Below are positions 4,298 through 62,914 of a DNA stretch of 64,000 bases, piece by piece; the stretch's first letter is position 1, and each line of letters starts with the position of its first letter. Where the stretch lies: positions 26,785 to 90,784 of the forward strand of contig CAKTAG010000001.1 of assembly GCA_934527325.1 (NCBI GenBank). Direction: 5' to 3'. A program made the translations under genes and the position numbers. The notes beneath the pieces were generated by a model that was not told the origin of the DNA, ran no database searches, and worked only from the letters and a program-made list of their open reading frames with translations. The stretch is from an uncultured Candidatus Soleaferrea sp. GTDB lineage: Bacteria; Bacillota; Clostridia; Oscillospirales; Ruminococcaceae.

Positions 4298-4942
4298 TTG
4301 AGAACAGAAAAATTATCGTTAATTCTTTTGGGTGCACCTGGTGCAGGCAAAGGAACTCAAGCAGAAATAATATCTAAGCAATATAATATACCAACAATAA
4401 GTACAGGTAATATTATTAGGGAAGCATTGAAGAATAAAACATCTATGGGGCTAAAGGCAAAAAATTATATCGATAAAGGTGAGTTAGTACCAGATGACAT
4501 TATTATTTCAATTGTAAAAGAACGTTTAAGTGAAAGTGATTGTAAAAATGGTTTTATTTTAGACGGAATGCCTAGAACAATTGCGCAAGCAAAAGCACTG
4601 GATGATATGGGTGTTGAAATAAATAAAGTTGTGAGCATAGAAGTTCCAGATGAAAAAATAATAAAAAGGTTAAGTGGACGCAGAGTTTGTAGTAAATGTG
4701 GTGCAAGTTACCATATAACAGATAAGCCGTCTTTAAAAGAAGATATTTGTGATAGTTGCAGTGGAGAGCTTGTTATAAGAAAAGACGATTCGCCGCAAAT
4801 AATAGCAGATAGACTTAAGGTTTACCATGAGCAGACAGAGCCGTTAAAAGATTATTATGATGCAAAAGGTTTGCTTGTAATAGTGCATGGGCAAGAACTT
4901 GTAGCAGATACTACTGCTTGTGTAGCCGAAGCGTTAAGGTAG
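4298..4942 (+). CDS. adk: Adenylate kinase (zinc-lid type)
   Basis: P-loop GAPGAGKGTQ and a CSKCG...CDSC lid. Confidence 0.96.
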   Translation: MRTEKLSLILLGAPGAGKGTQAEIISKQYNIPTISTGNIIREALKNKTSMGLKAKNYIDKGELVPDDIIISIVKERLSESDCKNGFILDGMPRTIAQAKALDDMGVEINKVVSIEVPDEKIIKRLSGRRVCSKCGASYHITDKPSLKEDICDSCSGELVIRKDDSPQIIADRLKVYHEQTEPLKDYYDAKGLLVIVHGQELVADTTACVAEALR

Positions 4943-9566: not shown

Positions 9567-9611
9567 AGCTGCATGGTAGTCTATAATAGATTTTACCATG
9601 CAGCTGCTTTT
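9567..9611 (+). terminator. Rho-independent terminator after rplQ (usable on both strands)
   Basis: A perfect 12-bp stem, AGCTGCATGGTA (9567-9578) with TACCATGCAGCT (9594-9605), then GCTTTT. The reverse strand also ends in a T-run. Confidence 0.7.
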
Positions 9612-9762
9612 ATGTGCGCCTTGCGGGGGGCGCACGTCACTAATGGATGAAAGTTCCTAATCCGCCCTAGTAGTGGGAAGGATACAGCCAAGACCAAGGG
9701 TGTCCTATTCATGTAAAGCTAAAGCTCACTCACTCCTCCGGCACAGTCGGGGGGGTTATTGT
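9612..9762 (+). ncRNA. Unclassified GC-rich structured RNA candidate
   Basis: A GC-rich island in AT-rich DNA. Hairpins are at 9612-9637, 9680-9705 and 9733-9755, the last followed by TTATTGT. Each contains G.U pairs on the + strand that would be C.A mismatches on the - strand. Confidence 0.35.
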
Positions 9763-9940
9763 CACGTTTAGGCAACAATAAAAAAGAACCGTAACAAACC
9801 AAACTCAAAAAGAATTAGTTAGTTACAGTTCTTACTCAATTTAACAATCTGTTAATATTAATGCCTTATTAGTGATTGACAAATAGCAGTTATTTTTAGT
9901 TTGATGCTTAAAACAGATTCTTAAAAAGAAATAAAAATTT

Positions 9941-24115: not shown

Positions 24116-24271
24116 TGTATGTTAATCTGTTAATATCAGTTAGCTTAATATTTACCACTGTTAAGTTGCTGTTTATTATAAATAACGGCTCTGTTTATTG
24201 AGCTGCTAATTTTTTATATATTACAATACCTAAAAAATTATTTATAGCTTAATATGTAAGGGGGGAACAAC

Positions 24272-24572: not shown

Positions 24573-25988
24573 TTGATACATAAATATTATTTGAATGGAT
24601 TATATATATTGTTGGATGTTAATAGTGGAGCTGTACATATAGTAAATAAAATTATCTTTGATATATTAGATTACATATCTTTACCATTACCTGAAGAATG
24701 CCCAGAAAATATTTTAAATAGTGAGGGGTTAAAACTTTACAGTAGGCAAGATATTGTAGATGGATATAATGAAATAAAATATTTATTTAAAATAGGGCAA
24801 TTGTTTAGCGAAGATGAATATGAAAAATTTGTTAATAATCAGTTTAAAATGCCAGTTAAAGCGGTTTGCCTGCATGTTGCCCATGATTGTAATTTAAGAT
24901 GTAAATATTGTTTTGCTTCAACGGGAAATTTTGGACGTAACAGAGAATTGATGTCTGTAGATGTAGGTAAAAAGGCAATTGATTTTTTATTAAAGCATTC
25001 AGAAGGTAGAAAGAATTTAGAGCTCGATTTTTTTGGTGGGGAACCACTTATGAATTTTGATGTAGTTAAAGAAATAGTAAAATATGCTAGAGAACAAGAA
25101 AAAATATATAATAAAAATTTTAGGTTTACAATAACTACTAACGGAATATTATTAGATGATGACAAAATAGATTTTATAAATAAAGAGATGTCTAACGTTG
25201 TTTTATCATTAGATGGTAGAAAAGAAGTTAATGATAAAATGCGCCCAACATTTAATGGTAAAGGCTCTTATGATGTTATAGTGCCTAAGTTTAAGAAATT
25301 AGTGACAAAACGTGGTGGTGATAAATATTACATTAGAGGTACATTTACTGCAAATAATTTAGATTTTACTAATGATATAATTCATTTTGCAGATTTGGGG
25401 TTTGACCAAATTTCAATAGAGCCGGTTGTTACAGATTTAAAAAACGATTATGCAATAACATATGATGATATACCTAAAATATTTAATGAGTATGAAACTT
25501 TGTTAAACGAGATGATAAGAAGGTATAAAAATAAACAAAGTTTAATAAGTAATGGCGGCGATGTAGATAATATAGATAATGTTGATAAGCCGTTTAATTT
25601 TTTTCATTTTATGGTAGATTTAGAACAAGGTCCTTGTGCAATAAAAAGGCTAAGAGGTTGTGGAAGTGGTAATGAATATGTAGCTATTACTCCTAAAGGT
25701 GATATATACCCATGCCACCAGTTTGTAGGTATGCCAGAATGGAAGATGGGTAGTGTTATTGATGATAGTTTTGATTTGAAAATAAAAAAAATTTTTGCAG
25801 ATACAAACATATATACTAAAGAAGATTGTAGAAATTGTTGGGCAAAATTTTATTGTAGTGGAGGTTGTAGTGCAAATAATTTACTATATGCAGGGGCGTT
25901 AAATAAACCATATAAACTTAGTTGCGAGATGATGAAAAAAAGGTTAGAATGTGCTATAATGTTAAGAGCAGTTGAAAAAGGTTTTTAG
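24573..25988 (+). CDS. scfB: SCIFF radical SAM maturase
   Basis: CNLRCKYC radical-SAM cluster, a C-terminal SPASM-type Cys-rich region, and a position immediately after scfA. Confidence 0.9.
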   Translation: MIHKYYLNGLYILLDVNSGAVHIVNKIIFDILDYISLPLPEECPENILNSEGLKLYSRQDIVDGYNEIKYLFKIGQLFSEDEYEKFVNNQFKMPVKAVCLHVAHDCNLRCKYCFASTGNFGRNRELMSVDVGKKAIDFLLKHSEGRKNLELDFFGGEPLMNFDVVKEIVKYAREQEKIYNKNFRFTITTNGILLDDDKIDFINKEMSNVVLSLDGRKEVNDKMRPTFNGKGSYDVIVPKFKKLVTKRGGDKYYIRGTFTANNLDFTNDIIHFADLGFDQISIEPVVTDLKNDYAITYDDIPKIFNEYETLLNEMIRRYKNKQSLISNGGDVDNIDNVDKPFNFFHFMVDLEQGPCAIKRLRGCGSGNEYVAITPKGDIYPCHQFVGMPEWKMGSVIDDSFDLKIKKIFADTNIYTKEDCRNCWAKFYCSGGCSANNLLYAGALNKPYKLSCEMMKKRLECAIMLRAVEKGF

Positions 25989-44816: not shown

Positions 44817-45590
44817 ATGTTAAAAAAAATAATTTTTTTATCTGTGGTGTTTTTATTGTGTTTAACAGGTTGCAGTAATAAAGTAAAAACAGTTGCAGAT
44901 ATAAAAAGTAAAGGAGTTATTACTGTTATTACTAATGCAGTTTTTCCGCCTTTTGAATATTTTAAATTAGATGAAGTTAAGGGTATAGATGTAGATATAG
45001 CTAAAGAAGTAGCAAAGGATTTAGGTGTGGAACTTGAAATATTAGATATGAATTTTGATGGGGTTATTGCAGCTATTGCTTCTGGAAAGGGAGACTTTGC
45101 TGCTGCGGGAATTACGATAAATGAGAAAAGAAAAAAAGTAATTGATTTTTCACATGAATACATAACAGTTCCTCAAAGCTTAGTAACTATGGCAGATAGT
45201 AAAATTAATAATGTTAGTGATTTAAAAGGTAAAAATATAGGTACACAAATAGGAACAACATCAGATACATATATTGATAATGAAATTAAAGATGGTTTTT
45301 TAAAGGGTAGTGAAGCGCAAGTTGTTAAGCGAAAAGAATATTTAGATTTAGTAATAGACTTAAAAAATGGTAGATTGGATGTTATTGCTTTAGATGGATT
45401 GATAGCGAGAAAATTAGTTGAAAAAAATAGTAGATTAAAATTTTTTGATAGAGATAGTGAAAGTTATGTATTAGCAGTTAAAAAGGGAAATAACGAATTG
45501 TTAAAAGAAATAAATAAAACTATAGATAGATTACTTAAACAGGGTAAAATAATTGATTTTTATAACCAACATATTAACTTAAATAAATAG
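44817..45590 (+). CDS. Amino-acid ABC transporter substrate-binding lipoprotein (no adjacent permease or ATPase)
   Basis: Lipobox LTGC|SN and family-3 SBP motifs (FPPFEY, GIDVDIAKE). Confidence 0.85.
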   Translation: MLKKIIFLSVVFLLCLTGCSNKVKTVADIKSKGVITVITNAVFPPFEYFKLDEVKGIDVDIAKEVAKDLGVELEILDMNFDGVIAAIASGKGDFAAAGITINEKRKKVIDFSHEYITVPQSLVTMADSKINNVSDLKGKNIGTQIGTTSDTYIDNEIKDGFLKGSEAQVVKRKEYLDLVIDLKNGRLDVIALDGLIARKLVEKNSRLKFFDRDSESYVLAVKKGNNELLKEINKTIDRLLKQGKIIDFYNQHINLNK

Positions 45591-45610
45591 GCTGTAGAAA
45601 AATAGCAGTT

Positions 45611-45665
45611 CCCCCAATAAAAATACCACCTACATATAGCGGGTGGTATTTTTATTGGGGGTTTT
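45611..45665 (+). terminator. Terminator hairpin (20-bp perfect stem)
   Basis: CCCCCAATAAAAATACCACC (45611-45630) pairs with GGTGGTATTTTTATTGGGGG (45642-45661), followed by TTTT. Confidence 0.65.
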
Positions 45666-45839
45666 AGGTATGGTAATTGCTTACAAACTAAAAGAGATGA
45701 CGAAAAAATATGGTATGATGCAGAAAAAAGTAATTATAAAAAATATTGGTAGAACATAGTGGCATATGATATAAAGCTGTTATTTGCTATTTATTTTGTT
45801 CAATGTTGAAAAAAATAATAAATTTTATACAAATATATA

Positions 45840-45868
45840 TTGAAAAATAATTAATTGCATGCTATAAT
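45840..45868 (+). promoter_or_regulatory. Extended -10 promoter of LRR gene copy 1
   Basis: TTGAAA (45840-45845), a 17-nt spacer ending TGC, then TATAAT (45863-45868). Confidence 0.6.
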
Positions 45869-45961
45869 GTTGTTAACATAAAAAGTTTAAGGTTAGCAGA
45901 GTTGGTTAAAGAGCATATAGTGCAAAAAAGCCGTTAATTTTATTGTTGAGGGGTAAATAAA

Positions 45962-47321
45962 ATGAATAAGATAAATAAAGTAAATAAGATAAAAAGTATA
46001 AAAATAATTAACAAATTTGTAAAAATAACCCAATCGGGGGGGGGAACAGAGTAAATTAAGTAACAGTTTTTTTAAACTGTTATTTTTGTTAATTTTTTTT
46101 AATTTGCTTAACTTTGCTAGCTTTGGTGCAGATTTTCAAGATACAGCAAACGGGTTAGAGTATAATTTTAAAATAGATGATACTACTACTAATACTGGTA
46201 CTTTAACAATTTCTAAAGATGATGATGTCAGCGATGACAAAGTGCCTATAGATGACGACGGTATGCCTAAAAGAGAAGTAACTGAGGGTGGAGTAAATAG
46301 TGTTATTGATCGAAATAGATATGGTGAAAACACTACGGTAAAAACAGTAATAATATCAGAAGGTGTAACAAGTATAGGTCAGTATGCATTTTATAGTTGC
46401 GAGTCATTAAAAAATTTAACAATACCAAGTAGTGTAAAAACTATAGGTAATAATGCATTTAATCGTTGTACTTCATTAGAAAGTGCAATAATACCAAAAG
46501 GTGTAAAAAAAATAGGTAATGATGCATTTTTTGCATGTACAGCATTAACAAGTGCAACAATACCAAGTAGTGTAGAAACTATAGGTGATGCAGTATTTAG
46601 TTATTGTAAAAGTTTACCAGAAATAATAGTAGAAGAAGGAAATGCACAATATAAAGATATAGATGGTGTATTGTTTACCAAAGATGGAAAACAGTTAATA
46701 TGTTACCCTGCAGGTAAAGTGGATACGAGTTATATAATACCAAATAGCGTAGAAACTATAGGTGTAATGGCTTTTTATGAGTGTAAATTATTAACAAGTG
46801 TAACAATGCCAAATAGTGTAACAAAGATAGGTGAAGGTGCGTTTTGGTGTGGTGCTGTGCCAGATGTGTATTACATAGGAAGTGAAGTTGAGTGGAATAA
46901 GATAACAATTTATGAGTTCAACGAAGCAAGAATACATTACACTGGTGAAACGTTAACTGTAAAAAAAGTTTGGCAAGATAACAAAAATAGCAGTTTAAGA
47001 AGTAAACCAACGTTGGTATTGTATACAGTAACAAAAGATGAAAACGGAGATTCGAAATACAAAATAATGGGTGCAAATGAGTATAAACAATATAATTTTA
47101 CATATACAAATGATGTTCCAGTTAAGTTTGATGAGGATACTAAAAAAGTAACAGATGGCAATGGAGAAGATGTATGGTTATGTAAAATTACAATATTTTA
47201 CTATTATTTTGATGAAAATCATAACAAAAAAACACAACCTAATACATATGCAGTAAGCGAAGACCCAATGGAAGGCTACACATCTACTGCACCTACACCC
47301 AAATTAACAACTAAATCATAA
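45962..47321 (+). CDS. BspA-type LRR / CnaB-domain surface protein, frameshifted at a G9 tract (phase-variable, OFF as assembled)
   Basis: GAGGGG SD plus ATG 45962 reads MNKINKVNKIKSIKIINKFVKITQSGGGTE*. The main ORF 46086-47321 is in the +1 frame. It has LRR_5 repeats IPSSVKTIGNNAFNRCTSL and a C-terminal KKVWQDNKNSSLRSKP...YAVSEDPMEGYTS. Confidence 0.75.
46036..46044 (+). repeat. Poly-G tract (G9)
   Basis: Counted directly: c46035, g46036-g46044, a46045. Confidence 0.95.
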
Positions 47322-47391
47322 TTAACATTTGACCATCTACGTAAAGTTTTTGCTTTTTAGTAAGTCGATTGCATTAGAAAGAAAGGCAAGT

Positions 47392-47430
47392 AAAAAGGGC
47401 AGCCATTTATATTAATGGTTGCCCCTTTTT
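47392..47430. terminator. Bidirectional terminator between convergent genes
   Basis: AAAAAGGGCAGCCATT pairs with AATGGTTGCCCCTTTTT. Confidence 0.65.
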
Positions 47431-47456
47431 ACTAATCTAAATAATTGCTGTAATAA

Positions 47457-48962
47457 TTAATGGGAATATTCTTTATTGGCTTTTACGTTCCACAATGGTA
47501 TACAAAGTAGTGCACCAACAAAAGCTACTAAGCCCCAGTAAACCAAAACAAGTCTAGCATCATTATATTTTTCCATGGAATGAGATAAAACTATGCCGTT
47601 AATTACATGCCCAAAAGCTGCACCAAAATAACCAAGTAAACCAGCAAAGCCAGAAGCTGCAGATGCAACTCTTTTTGACGATGATTCAACCGCACATATA
47701 CCGCCTACTAAAACTTGAGGAACACATACAGTAAACCCAGCAATACCAAGAGATGTAAATATTACAATATTTTTTAACAATTCGTTGTTGTATATTGGTG
47801 AATATTGTGAACCGCCTAACCACATGCCAAAAACAGATAAAGCACCTATAGTTAAACACCAAAAGTTTGCAGGTGCTCTACGACCTTTAAATAATTTTTC
47901 AGATATTAATGGTGCAAAAAAAGTTCCAAAAAAACCAATAGCACATAGTGTAGAAGCTTTTAAGGCTGCAAGTTTATCTATTGTTTGCAATGCCTCTAAT
48001 GATGTTGCTTTAGGTGCACTGCCAGCTAGAATTTTAAAAATCCAGTCTACAGGTCCGTTTCGGAACACATAAACACAAAAATAAATTAATGCTAAATTCC
48101 ACATTACTTTATTTTTTAAAACGTATTTTTTTAAAATTTCAAAATATGTAAGGTTAGATTCTTTATTTTTTTCTTCTTTTTCTACATCTGTTAAAGTTTC
48201 GAATTTTGTTTCACAAATTTCTTCAACATCTGGGAGCCCTATAGTTTGAGGTTTATCTCTTAACGAGAAGAACCCTATAATACCAACTGTTAAGGCTGCA
48301 ACAAAAGGAACAAAAAACATAGCTTCAAAGCCGTATTTACCAAAAGCAGATGCTATATAAGCTGTAGAGTTTAAAGCTAAAAAACTTCCAAGCTCGTGTG
48401 AAGTAGACCACCTAGCCCACCAGGTTGCTCTTGTGGCATTTGGGAACCACCTTATTAGAGATTTTGCACAATACGGAAATAACGCAGATTGAAACCAATT
48501 GCTAGCTCCCCAAAAAAGGCACATATAAATTAACATTGCTTTGTGTGAAGTAATGTAATTACTGTGAACCCATGGTGCAATAGCCACCATAACATTAAAT
48601 CCATTAGCTAATATTAAACTAATAGGCAAAGATGTTCTAACATTTCCACGGTCTGCAATAGAGCCATTTAAAAATTTACCTAAACCGTAAATTATTGAAG
48701 AAACAGCTAATATTATACCTTGATCTTTTGTTGTTATACCAATTGTTTCATTCATAAATGGCATAGCTATGCTAAAGTTCTTTCTACCTAAATAAGCAAC
48801 AATATATGTTATGTAAGAAGTTATTAAAATGGAATTGCGCCAAAATTTGTAAGTTTTTTTTATTTCAGCTTTATTTTTAATTATTGGTTTTGCATCTGGT
48901 TCGGAAAAAATACGTTGCCATAAATTTTTTTTAGTTTTAATGGTCGAGCGTGATGTAGACAT
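47457..48962 (-). CDS. MFS organophosphate:Pi antiporter family transporter (UhpC/GlpT-like)
   Basis: A 501-aa protein with 12 TM segments and an N-terminus ...YKFWRNSILITSYITYIVAYLGRKNFSIAMPFM typical of the OPA family. Confidence 0.8.
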   Translation of the reverse strand: MSTSRSTIKTKKNLWQRIFSEPDAKPIIKNKAEIKKTYKFWRNSILITSYITYIVAYLGRKNFSIAMPFMNETIGITTKDQGIILAVSSIIYGLGKFLNGSIADRGNVRTSLPISLILANGFNVMVAIAPWVHSNYITSHKAMLIYMCLFWGASNWFQSALFPYCAKSLIRWFPNATRATWWARWSTSHELGSFLALNSTAYIASAFGKYGFEAMFFVPFVAALTVGIIGFFSLRDKPQTIGLPDVEEICETKFETLTDVEKEEKNKESNLTYFEILKKYVLKNKVMWNLALIYFCVYVFRNGPVDWIFKILAGSAPKATSLEALQTIDKLAALKASTLCAIGFFGTFFAPLISEKLFKGRRAPANFWCLTIGALSVFGMWLGGSQYSPIYNNELLKNIVIFTSLGIAGFTVCVPQVLVGGICAVESSSKRVASAASGFAGLLGYFGAAFGHVINGIVLSHSMEKYNDARLVLVYWGLVAFVGALLCIPLWNVKANKEYSH

Positions 48963-60782: not shown

Positions 60783-61546
60783 ATAATATTGTAAGAAAAG
60801 AACTTTTTGAATTAGAGGATAAAAATTACAAAATATTTGCAACAAAACTTTTACCTAATGTAGATAATTTAATAGGGGTTCGGTTGCCATATTTAAGAAA
60901 TATAGCAAAACGAATTGCTTTACAAGATTGGCAACAATACCTTGAGTACGCAGAAAGTAATTATTTTGAAGAAGTTATGTTACAGGGAATGGTAATAGGG
61001 TATGTAAAAACAGATATATGTGAACTATTGAAATATGTAAAAAAATTCATACCTAAAATAAATAATTGGTCTGTATGTGATTCATTTTGTTTTGGCTTAA
61101 AAATAACTGAAAAAAATTTAAATATTGTTTTTAATTTTTTAAAACCATATTTTTACTCTAGGCATGAGTTTGAAGTTAGATTTAGTGTTGTTATGTTGTT
61201 AAAATGGTTTAATAAACAAGAATATATTGAAAGTAATTTGAAAATTTTAAAAGCAATAACAAATAATGGGTATTATGCTAAAATGGCTGTTGCTTGGGCT
61301 ATTTCTGTTTTTTATATAACTTTTTCTGATATTATTTTATTATATTTAAAAAATAATAATATTAATGATTTTATATATAATGAATCAATAAAAAAAATTA
61401 AGGAGTCTACTAGGGTTTCTAATGAATTAAAAGATAAAATATACCAATTGAAAAAACAAAATAATATAGACGGAAATACTGCAAAACCAATGTGTGGCAA
61501 TTGTTTGCGAACTAAAAGAGATGACGAAAGAAAAAATATGGTATGA
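60779..61546 (+). CDS. DNA alkylation repair protein (AlkD-like HEAT-repeat family)
   Basis: Contains ...GVRLPYLRNIAKRIA...WSVCDSFC.... The last ~37 nt lie inside duplication copy 2. Confidence 0.75.
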   Translation: MNNIVRKELFELEDKNYKIFATKLLPNVDNLIGVRLPYLRNIAKRIALQDWQQYLEYAESNYFEEVMLQGMVIGYVKTDICELLKYVKKFIPKINNWSVCDSFCFGLKITEKNLNIVFNFLKPYFYSRHEFEVRFSVVMLLKWFNKQEYIESNLKILKAITNNGYYAKMAVAWAISVFYITFSDIILLYLKNNNINDFIYNESIKKIKESTRVSNELKDKIYQLKKQNNIDGNTAKPMCGNCLRTKRDDERKNMV

Positions 61547-61668
61547 TGCAGAAAAAAGTATTTATAAAAATATTGGTAGAACATGGTGGTAAATAACACA
61601 AAACTGGTTATTTGCCATTTATTTTATTATATGTTAAAAAAAAATAATACATTTTACACAAAAATATA

Positions 61669-61697
61669 TTGAAAACCCCTTAACTATATGCTATAAT
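61669..61697 (+). promoter_or_regulatory. Extended -10 promoter of LRR gene copy 2
   Basis: TTGAAA (61669-61674), a 17-nt spacer ending TGC, then TATAAT (61692-61697). Confidence 0.6.
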
Positions 61698-61794: not shown

Positions 61795-62914
61795 ATGAAT
61801 AAGATAAAAAGAGTAAAAATAATTAACAAATTTGTAAAAATAACCCAATCGGGGGGGGGAAAAACAGAGTAAATTAAGTAACAGTTTTTTTAAACTGTTA
61901 TTTTTGGTTATTTTTTTAAATTTGCTTAGCTTTGCTAGCTTTGGTGCAACTTGTAAATTTGACAGTTCAACTGGTACCTTAACAGCTTCTGGTAAGGGAG
62001 AATTAAGTGTAGATGATGTAAATAGTGTTATTGTGCGAGATAAGTATGGTAAAAACACTACGGTAACAACAGTAGAAATAAAAAATGATATAACAAGTAT
62101 AGGTAATATAGCATTTAACAATTGTGAAGGATTAACAACGGTAATATTTGAAGAAAATTCTAATTTAAAAACTATAAATGTTGGTGCATTTAATAGTTGT
62201 ACAAATTTAAATAATATAATAATACCAGAAGGTGTAGAAAGTATAGGTAGTGGTGCATTTGATAATTGTACGTCATTAAGTAATATAATAATACCAAATA
62301 GTGTAACAAGTATAGGTAGTAAGGCATTTTACAATTGTACAAAATTAAATAATATAATAATACCAGAAGGTGTAACAAGTATAGGTAGTAAGGCATTTTA
62401 CAATTGTACAGAATTAAAGGATGTGTATTACTTAGGAACTAAAGTTAAGTGGGATGAGATAAGAAATAAAAGAAACAACAGTGACTTGGATAATGTAACA
62501 GTACATTATAGTAAAATGTTAACTGTAAATAAAGTTTGGGATGATAACAAAAATAGCAGTTTAAGAAGTAAGCCTCAATTGGTGTTGTATAGAGTATACA
62601 AAAATTGTTACAAAAATGGTGAAGATTACTACCACGGAAGTAATAATAAGATTAAATACGACAGTAGTAACGATTATGTTGTTGATAATTATAATGAAAC
62701 TTATACAGTATACAAAAAAATGGTTGCAGGTAAAACAGGTAAAAATGATGAGTATAAGCAAGGTGATTTTAGTGGTTGTTCAGGTGATGAATGGCAGTGT
62801 AAAATTTTAATCTATGACAATGAAGAGGGTGATATATGTGCAGTAAGTGAAGACCCGATGGAAGGTTACACATCTACTGCACCTACACCCCAATTAACAA
62901 CTGCACCTAATTAA
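61795..62914 (+). CDS. BspA-type LRR / CnaB-domain surface protein, frameshifted at a G9 tract (phase-variable, OFF as assembled)
   Basis: AAGGGG SD plus ATG 61795 reads MNKIKRVKIINKFVKITQSGGGKTE*. The main ORF 61904-62914 is in the +1 frame. It has near-identical 69-bp LRR units (NIIIPEGVTSIGSKAFYNCT) and the same C-terminal AVSEDPMEGYTSTAPTP. Confidence 0.75.
61851..61859 (+). repeat. Poly-G tract (G9)
   Basis: Counted directly: c61850, g61851-g61859, a61860. Confidence 0.95.

Follow-up and report, generated by a model that had tools for sequence, protein, structure and literature searches.

Poly-G tracts in the signal-peptide leaders of BspA-type leucine-rich-repeat genes as probable ON/OFF switches in uncultured gut Clostridia

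Introduction

Contingency loci based on simple sequence repeats (SSRs) are known chiefly from pathogens such as Neisseria, Haemophilus, Campylobacter, Helicobacter and Mycoplasma. Neisseria has its repeats within the part of the gene that codes for the signal peptide, as CTCTT units in opa and as poly-G in pilC, and in the vlp, vsp and vsa genes of Mycoplasma divergent, repeat-containing bodies follow a highly conserved 5' region that comprises promoter and signal peptide. For gut commensals, studies of phase variation have centred on invertons, mostly in Bacteroidales. Here we describe two genes for leucine-rich-repeat (LRR) proteins of the BspA type, copy 1 at site A and copy 2 at site B, in a 64,000-nucleotide (nt) stretch of contig CAKTAG010000001.1 from an uncultured Candidatus Soleaferrea sp. 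(the whole stretch is hereafter called the window), together with their relatives in public human-gut assemblies. In both copies a run of nine G residues (G9) puts the leader out of frame with the LRR body. We propose, with a probability that we put at roughly 85%, that these LRR genes are poly-G contingency loci, each of them switched ON and OFF by slipped-strand changes of its tract. The mechanism is that of the classical contingency locus; the host clade and the gene family are new.

The phasome of Neisseria has been the subject of an overview (PMC5953494). Candidatus Mycoplasma girerdii has at least 28 BspA-like LRR genes, eight of which contain length-variable SSRs, mostly dinucleotides, that truncate or restore the open reading frame (ORF), the variation having been seen at read level within one population (PMC5476646). 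In the AT-rich genome of Campylobacter jejuni the rare poly-G/C tracts are concentrated in surface-related phase-variable genes (PMC3025981), with poly-G examples among the autotransporters (PMC7168839). Invertons of gut commensals have been surveyed as well (PMC11892184, PMC11602134). Within our literature coverage, which is incomplete, we found no account of SSR switching in an LRR or surface-protein family of gut Clostridia. An earlier note on this DNA, made from the sequence alone, knew of no description of such a switch for BspA-type LRR proteins of gut Clostridia; the novelty stands for Clostridia and falls for BspA-like genes as such, in view of Ca. M. girerdii (PMC5476646).

Results

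A G9 tract separates the leader from the LRR frame in both copies

Copy 1 has the following features, from the upstream end of the cassette that it shares with its paralogs to a terminator-like element (SD, Shine-Dalgarno sequence; UTR, untranslated region).

45666..45839, + strand: block of the common 5' cassette that precedes the promoter; copies 1 and 2 are ~90% identical from here onward
45840..45868, + strand: promoter TTGAAA-17 nt-TG-n-TATAAT with extended -10, a consensus match
45875..45961, + strand: 5' UTR of ~85-90 nt, conserved across paralogs, counted from a predicted transcription start
45948..45953, + strand: SD GAGGGG, read from the sequence
45962..46054, + strand: leader ORF in its OFF (G9) state, MNKINKVNKIKSIKIINKFVKITQSGGGTE, 30 codons from ATG 45962 to TAA 46052-46054
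46029..47321, + strand: LRR open frame, stop-free, with the rest of the n-region, the h-region, the LRRs and the C-terminal domain
46036..46044, + strand: G9 switch in leader codons 25-28; G8 and G11 are ON, G7, G9 and G10 are OFF
46077..46127, + strand: h-region LLFLLIFFNLLNFASFG, within the LRR open frame
47397..47434, + strand: intrinsic terminator-like hairpin and T run, 3' of the gene

The promoter is the best sigma-70-like match within 45550-47480, agreeing at 11/12 positions, and both of its hexamers are kept at five paralogous sites. When the gene is ON, the first 27 leader codons contribute to the signal peptide's basic n-region. The long frame, read by itself, has TTG 46086 as its first canonical start, which gives an ORF of 411 codons. 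Translation from this TTG was considered and rejected, as no SD-like purine run lies directly upstream of it and the product would be devoid of the charged n-region.

The frame logic was examined with an in silico series of tract lengths from G6 to G12 in both copies. Resizing the copy-1 tract to G8 or G11 yields a single protein of 452/453 amino acids (aa), and G7, G9, G10 and G12 each lead to a stop after 30-31 codons. The earlier note had given this promoter, SD, ATG, stop codon, G9 position and frames, all of which are borne out by our reading of the sequence; it had foreseen that G8 or G11 fuses the leader with the long ORF, as the resizing confirms, and it had named TTG 46086, without an SD, as the only start of that ORF, in keeping with the TTG being met first in frame and with the lack of a purine run upstream.

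The conserved 5' UTR has no match in Rfam, either at the gathering threshold or at E <= 1, and its predicted consensus fold has zero covarying pairs; on these two results, a riboswitch or leader RNA is unsupported. The 45666..45839 block recurs upstream of the family genes in contig L010, and only its proximal part does so in L012 and L013 (L numbers denote contigs fetched in this work). Window positions 45667-45747 (81 nt) are missing from the second site-A haplotype (L001, L002, L003 and L006). Close by, a terminator-like hairpin lies on the minus strand at 45626-45642.

Copy 2 has the same organization:

61669..61697, + strand: promoter TTGAAA-17 nt-TG-n-TATAAT, read from the sequence and aligned with the copy-1 promoter
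61795..61872, + strand: leader ORF in its OFF state, MNKIKRVKIINKFVKITQSGGGKTE followed by a stop, from ATG 61795
61844..62914, + strand: LRR open frame, start coordinate approximate; the mechanical ORF starts at TTG 61904
61851..61859, + strand: G9 switch in leader codons 19-22; G8 and G11 are ON

It follows the frame logic of copy 1 because three extra A's after the tract hold the register. Its downstream ORF (61904-62914) is intact over 336 codons, and its ON version is found as a database protein of 371 aa (P0128). From ~290 nt ahead of the ATG through to where the signal peptide ends, the 5' cassettes of the two copies are 90-100% identical; their LRR bodies are divergent, and similarity returns at the C-termini. 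A distal part of the cassette (AACTAAAAGAGATGAC...GGTATGATGCAGAAAAAAGT...ATTGGTAGAACAT; window 45666-45760 and 61490-61600) is also kept between sites. At copy 2 this distal part overlaps the final codons of the upstream DNA-alkylation-repair gene, and for this reason the C-terminus of the repair protein (…CLRTKRDDERKNMV) is made of repeat sequence.

Tract length varies between near-identical contigs

To collect orthologous sites, public assemblies of human-gut metagenomes were queried for exact matches to neighbouring housekeeping proteins. Since the anchors are neighbour genes, the sampling is independent of the switch state and has no bias towards ON alleles. The tract lengths found were:

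Site A (copy 1), between the SBP_bac_3 gene and the MFS genes, G9: window, L005, L002, L003
Site A, G8: L009, L008, L004
Site A, G7: L001, L006
Site B (copy 2), between the DNA-alkylation-repair gene and corA, G9: window, L018
Site B, G8: L016, L017, L019, L020

The window and L009 align over 1676 nt with 0 mismatches, L009 being one G shorter; L001 and L002 align over 7401 nt with 2 mismatches and a difference of two G's; the window and L005, with 1 mismatch over 5463 nt, have tracts of equal length. In pairwise alignments over 1.7-7.4 kb at 99.94-100% identity the tract is the sole indel. Its length differs inside each of two haplotypes that are ~76 single-nucleotide polymorphisms apart, and two samples, ERZ27287265 and ERZ4560556, combine an OFF site A (G9) with an ON site B (G8). 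On G8 contigs the gene callers report a fused gene, on G7 and G9 contigs a split one. The mixture of tract lengths that the earlier note expected among related strains is thus found at site A (G7/G8/G9) and at site B (G8/G9). Instead of one invariant in-frame length, the lengths vary between near-identical flanks, and this polymorphism on near-identical backgrounds, together with the fused ON alleles, supports the note's reading of a contingency locus.

Long G runs are confined to the LRR leaders

The window has 29% G+C. Its 64 kb contain two G/C runs of 8 or longer, and these are the two tracts themselves (46036-46044 and 61851-61859); for runs of 9 or longer, 0.011 are expected from the composition and two are observed, both in an LRR leader. 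Chance does not explain the two G9 tracts. In the fetched DNA (237 kb), too, every G/C run of 8 or longer falls within an LRR leader. GGG makes up 13% of the Gly codons of the window genes. Two more distant relatives keep the leader with an interrupted, non-slippery tract, CAATTAGAAAGGGAGCAG in L026 and CAATATGGAGGGGCGAGA in L030, and the protein therefore does not need the glycines. The homopolymer looks to be selected at the level of the DNA and not of the protein.

A family of tract-bearing genes with a common 5' cassette

Tract-bearing family members occupy at least seven chromosomal sites, of which five share a 5' cassette of ~460 nt that comprises promoter, UTR and leader. Apart from sites A and B these are (LMW, low-molecular-weight):

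Site adjoining tyrS: L010, L011
Site between a PLD-like gene and murD: L012
Site E, adjoining an LMW phosphatase gene: L013
Site adjoining spoIIE: L025
Site between tsf and cotJABC: L027-L029

The tract of L025 is G9 and in frame, because the flanking codons differ there (AAC-G9-AAG); this contig comes from the sample that also yielded the window-like strain, in which both site A and site B are OFF. A C-to-G change in L012 extends the run to G9 and leaves the frame unchanged. Fused, in-frame ON proteins are present in public sets (P0003, P0007, P0010, P0045, P0053, P0067, P0127 and P0128). They start with MNKI...KIINKFVKITQSGGE...NSFFKLLFL...SFASFG, with SGGE between the leader and the h-region, and continue into LRR_5 repeats. 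Two further database proteins, P0001 and P0002, are N-terminally truncated gene calls.

A phmmer search with the 61-aa leader against 1.84 billion representative proteins returned 12 clusters only, and the LRR family is restricted to a narrow clade. Because phmmer recovered these clusters, the lack of any scored match to a leader-only profile in a 5.8-billion-protein set is attributed to limits of the word index or the filters of that search. Exact 23-mer leader scans of genome contigs and of JGI metagenome contigs gave no match, and leader-bearing contigs turned up only in ENA, Logan and NCBI-derived collections. Against the GTDB representatives the family alignment found a single LRR locus, in an Acutalibacteraceae metagenome-assembled genome (MAG), which is unrelated and not a member. 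Six contigs (L007, L009, L021, L022, L023 and L024) end within the 5' cassette, L021 as close as 5 nt before the G tract. Such ends fit assembly breaks caused by a multi-copy repeat and possibly also by tract heterogeneity. Assembly breaks and split or truncated gene calls probably explain why the family is absent from the species-representative genomes that were scanned.

Several contigs differ from the window around the tract in other ways. In L008 (1092-1971; site A, sample ERZ27287315) the flank upstream of the gene matches site A of the window at 99.7% identity, and the gene itself, from its ATG on, matches the site-E gene of L013 (P0007) at 99.8%, with 1 mismatch/504 nt; either a paralog has been swapped in by recombination via the 5' cassette or the contig is an assembly chimera across the repeat. 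Over 6 kb, L016 (site B, sample ERZ28614815) and the window are 99.6% identical, and the ~20 nt that directly follow the L016 tract (~4573-4600, corresponding to window 61859-61880) are of the other leader type: the patch AACTAGGTAAGTTAAAT encodes ELGKLNN instead of EKQSKLSN and looks like a short gene conversion between paralogs. In L004 (5221-6523; site A, sample ERZ27271068) an insertion interrupts the LRR gene ~20 nt past the tract; the inserted DNA encodes an rve-family integrase/transposase on its minus strand, and the leftover leader has acquired extra changes.

The ON product is a predicted exported LRR protein

The repaired products match Pfam LRR_5 (PF13306) with E = 2.5e-40 (137.7 bits) for copy 1 and E = 5.7e-35 (120.4 bits) for copy 2, at a gathering cut-off of 27.7 bits. 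An AlphaFold model was obtained for a database protein identical to the copy-1 ORF, with an alignment that included eight relatives. Its predicted local distance difference test score (pLDDT) is ~90 across the LRR part, and its best Foldseek matches (E = 6e-14 to 1e-7) are 4h09 from Eubacterium ventriosum, PcpA (4cp6), 4gt6 from Faecalibacterium and TpLRR (6mlx), structures of the BspA/TpLRR type. The C-terminal domain of ~120 residues is modelled as beta-rich at a pLDDT of 40-60 only, that is, with low confidence. Cna_B (PF05738) is the sole Pfam match of three such C-terminal domains, at 20.7, 16.2 and 20.3 bits, under the cut-off of 22.3. From these sub-threshold scores and the low-confidence model CnaB-like is a plausible, unproven label. 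In the description "LRR/CnaB" of the earlier note, the LRR half is upheld by an above-threshold match and by the fold, and the CnaB half stays provisional.

The ON product begins with an n-region of 38 residues, nine of them K or R, followed by an uncharged stretch of 18 aa, LLFLLIFFNLLNFASFGA. It is predicted to carry a Sec-type signal peptide and hence to be exported; retention at the surface is not predicted, and "surface protein", as the earlier note called it, is best read as a putative label. The residues S-F-G at the end of the signal peptide are invariant across the family. Cleavage by signal peptidase after this SFG (46125-46127) is more likely than the AxA-like cleavage after SFGA that the same note had favoured. 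A lipoprotein was considered and rejected, there being no lipobox ahead of the Cys present in some members. The two repaired products end in ...EDPMEGYTSTAPTPKLTTKS and ...TAPTPQLTTAPN.

Host and other features of the window

The window encodes a SCIFF-type radical-SAM peptide maturase (24573-25988; TIGR03974, 683 bits). SCIFF-peptide maturases are a marker of Clostridia. Shortly before the maturase gene lies a short ORF, presumably the SCIFF precursor, whose SD is a G6 run at 24260-24265. The closest named relative of the window threonyl-tRNA synthetase is 81% identical and belongs to an Oscillospiraceae MAG; genes for SpoIIE and CotJA/B/C adjoin family members on related contigs, and human-gut metagenomes are the origin of the matching contigs, with many Hadza hunter-gatherer assemblies among them. 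The host appears, from its gene content and the origin of these contigs, to be an uncultured, spore-forming member of the gut Clostridia. Elsewhere in the window, a G+C-rich segment of ~180 nt (9595-9780) between rplQ and a tRNA cluster has G6 and G7 runs and a hairpin (GTGCGCCTTGCGGGGGGCGCAC); it has no match in Rfam even at E <= 1 and could be a structured RNA.

Discussion

Proposed mechanism and alternative explanations

We propose that a conserved sigma-A-type promoter and the SD would drive translation from ATG 45962 (ATG 61795 in copy 2). With a tract of G8 or G11 the ribosome would continue into the h-region and the LRR protein would be exported. With G9, the length in both window copies, and likewise with G7 or G10, it would meet a stop after 30-31 codons, and no exportable protein would be made. 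Replication slippage would add or remove G's and so bring about a heritable, probably reversible change of state; each member of the family of seven or more genes would switch independently, and a population would carry a mix of LRR-protein repertoires. We infer, moreover, that switching is frequent and reversible, that populations are heterogeneous, that the LRR proteins have a surface or adhesive role and that switching brings a selective benefit, e.g. immune or phage evasion or the choice of a niche. A contingency locus is favoured because the OFF ORFs (411 and 336 codons) have no other lesion, which means that they are not decaying.

Several points weigh against this proposal. The census consists of one consensus contig per sample and compares samples with one another, and some of the assemblies may stem from the same cohort or from the same reads. 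Near-identical contigs can have equal states, L001 and L006 being identical and both G7, and L002 and L003 both G9; a tract state, it appears, can persist as the majority. L005 and L018, essentially of the window strain, are also G9 like both window copies, an agreement that could come from the same underlying data. As to the protein, export and surface location are predictions only. The n-region of 38 residues with 9 K/R is atypically long for a signal peptide, which was called textbook in the earlier note, and no LPXTG, hydrophobic tail or other anchor was seen when the two repaired products were read by eye, a reading that did not include a motif search.

One alternative is a stable loss-of-function polymorphism, in which the tract is a mutational weak spot in dispensable genes and there is no adaptive, reversible switching. 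The OFF lengths shared by identical contigs of different assemblies (L001/L006, L002/L003) would suit it, and the insertion sequence that destroys the L004 allele at site A means that these genes can be lost; yet the OFF ORFs are otherwise intact across 336-411 codons, +1 and -1 states are both found, and ON and OFF alleles occur inside each of the haplotypes. The tract, moreover, is held at seven or more sites despite strong codon and composition bias, though interrupted, non-slippery versions are viable, and this retention is the pattern that selection for mutability predicts. For these reasons we regard simple loss of function as unlikely.

Still less probable is programmed recoding on G9, by +1 ribosomal frameshifting or by transcriptional slippage, which would make the OFF alleles constitutively or partially ON. 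The natural alleles include an in-frame G8 as well as a G7 that would need the opposite shift, so that no single event serves all of them; in-frame fused genes are common, and neither Rfam nor the covariation fold revealed a conserved stimulatory structure. These facts outweigh, in our view, the occurrence of G9 in the same frame in both window copies and the general observation, made mainly on A/T runs, that RNA polymerase can slip on homopolymers of ~9 or longer. As a minor process, low-level transcriptional slippage from OFF alleles may take place alongside the switching by tract length that we favour.

Least credible is an artefact of homopolymer sequencing or assembly, with the true tract in frame everywhere, since, error-prone as homopolymer length is on some platforms and although several contigs break within the 5' cassette, the MEGAHIT/SPAdes-named contigs, probably from short reads, give three lengths, separate assemblies reproduce the same length, and an error would need to strike the tract alone, no further indel being present in up to 7.4 kb aligned.

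Wider significance

Beyond the switch itself we put forward a broader reading, tentatively and at somewhat less than even odds: the family may form a complete system of antigenic or adhesive variation in an Oscillospirales-like spore-former of hunter-gatherer guts, with at least seven poly-G switches and with the cassette as a recombination handle. The handle is suggested because L008 carries the site-E gene at site A and L016 has a converted leader patch. If this broader reading is right, the combinatorial repertoire would reach 2^7 or more states, the 5' cassette would move gene bodies and leader patches between sites, and the family would be a Clostridia counterpart of Neisseria opa or Mycoplasma vsp that can be tracked directly in metagenomes.

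The LRR genes would constitute a well-delimited SSR-switched family, with a putative role in binding to the host or to partner organisms, in an uncultured anaerobic spore-former. Ordinary metagenomes suffice to read the ON/OFF state, which opens a way to study whether the exposed proteins of commensal Clostridia change within hosts, e.g. in response to immunoglobulin A, phage or diet. Annotation also calls for care: genes of this kind are split or truncated by gene callers, and assemblies break at the repeated cassette.

Comparison with known systems

The present family resembles opa and pilC of Neisseria in the position of the repeat within the signal-peptide coding region and in the setting of ON and OFF by the reading frame, the Neisseria products being of the adhesin type. 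As with opa, where combinatorial repertoires arise, the paralogs are scattered on the chromosome and would switch independently. The host differs, being a strictly anaerobic, spore-forming gut commensal of the Gram-positive type, and so does the product, an LRR protein of the BspA type where Neisseria has the beta-barrel Opa or a PilC. In contrast to the opa pentamer the repeat is a homopolymer, and a cassette of promoter, UTR and leader (~460 nt) is common to the paralogs.

With Ca. M. girerdii, a wall-less Mollicute, the family shares SSR-switched BspA-like LRR genes as well as the metagenomic origin of the finding in a human-associated uncultured organism. Unlike in that species, a poly-G serves as the repeat and always occupies the same place in the conserved signal-peptide leader, and the variation was seen between samples only. 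C. jejuni, also a gut coloniser, has tracts of similar length (G8-G11) with frame-dependent ON/OFF states, and the two organisms are alike in that long G/C tracts are scarce in their AT-rich DNA and mark genes of this kind. Its tracts serve capsule, lipooligosaccharide, flagellar glycosylation and autotransporter genes, whereas those described here occupy one conserved position in one paralogous family; Campylobacter is, in addition, without MutS/MutL mismatch repair.

The variable lipoproteins of Mycoplasma (vlp, vsp and vsa) are similar in their shared 5' region, in the ON/OFF control that each member has of its own and probably in the recombination between paralogs. They differ in the switch, which is a promoter poly-A in vlp and a site-specific inversion in vsp and vsa, in contrast to the coding-region poly-G of the present family, whose members have no lipobox. 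Finally, genes under the control of invertons, such as cwpV of Clostridioides difficile, are likewise phase-varied surface or adhesion genes of gut bacteria, Clostridia included; they are switched by recombinase-mediated inversion and not by an SSR, whereas for the LRR family described here we propose slippage during replication.

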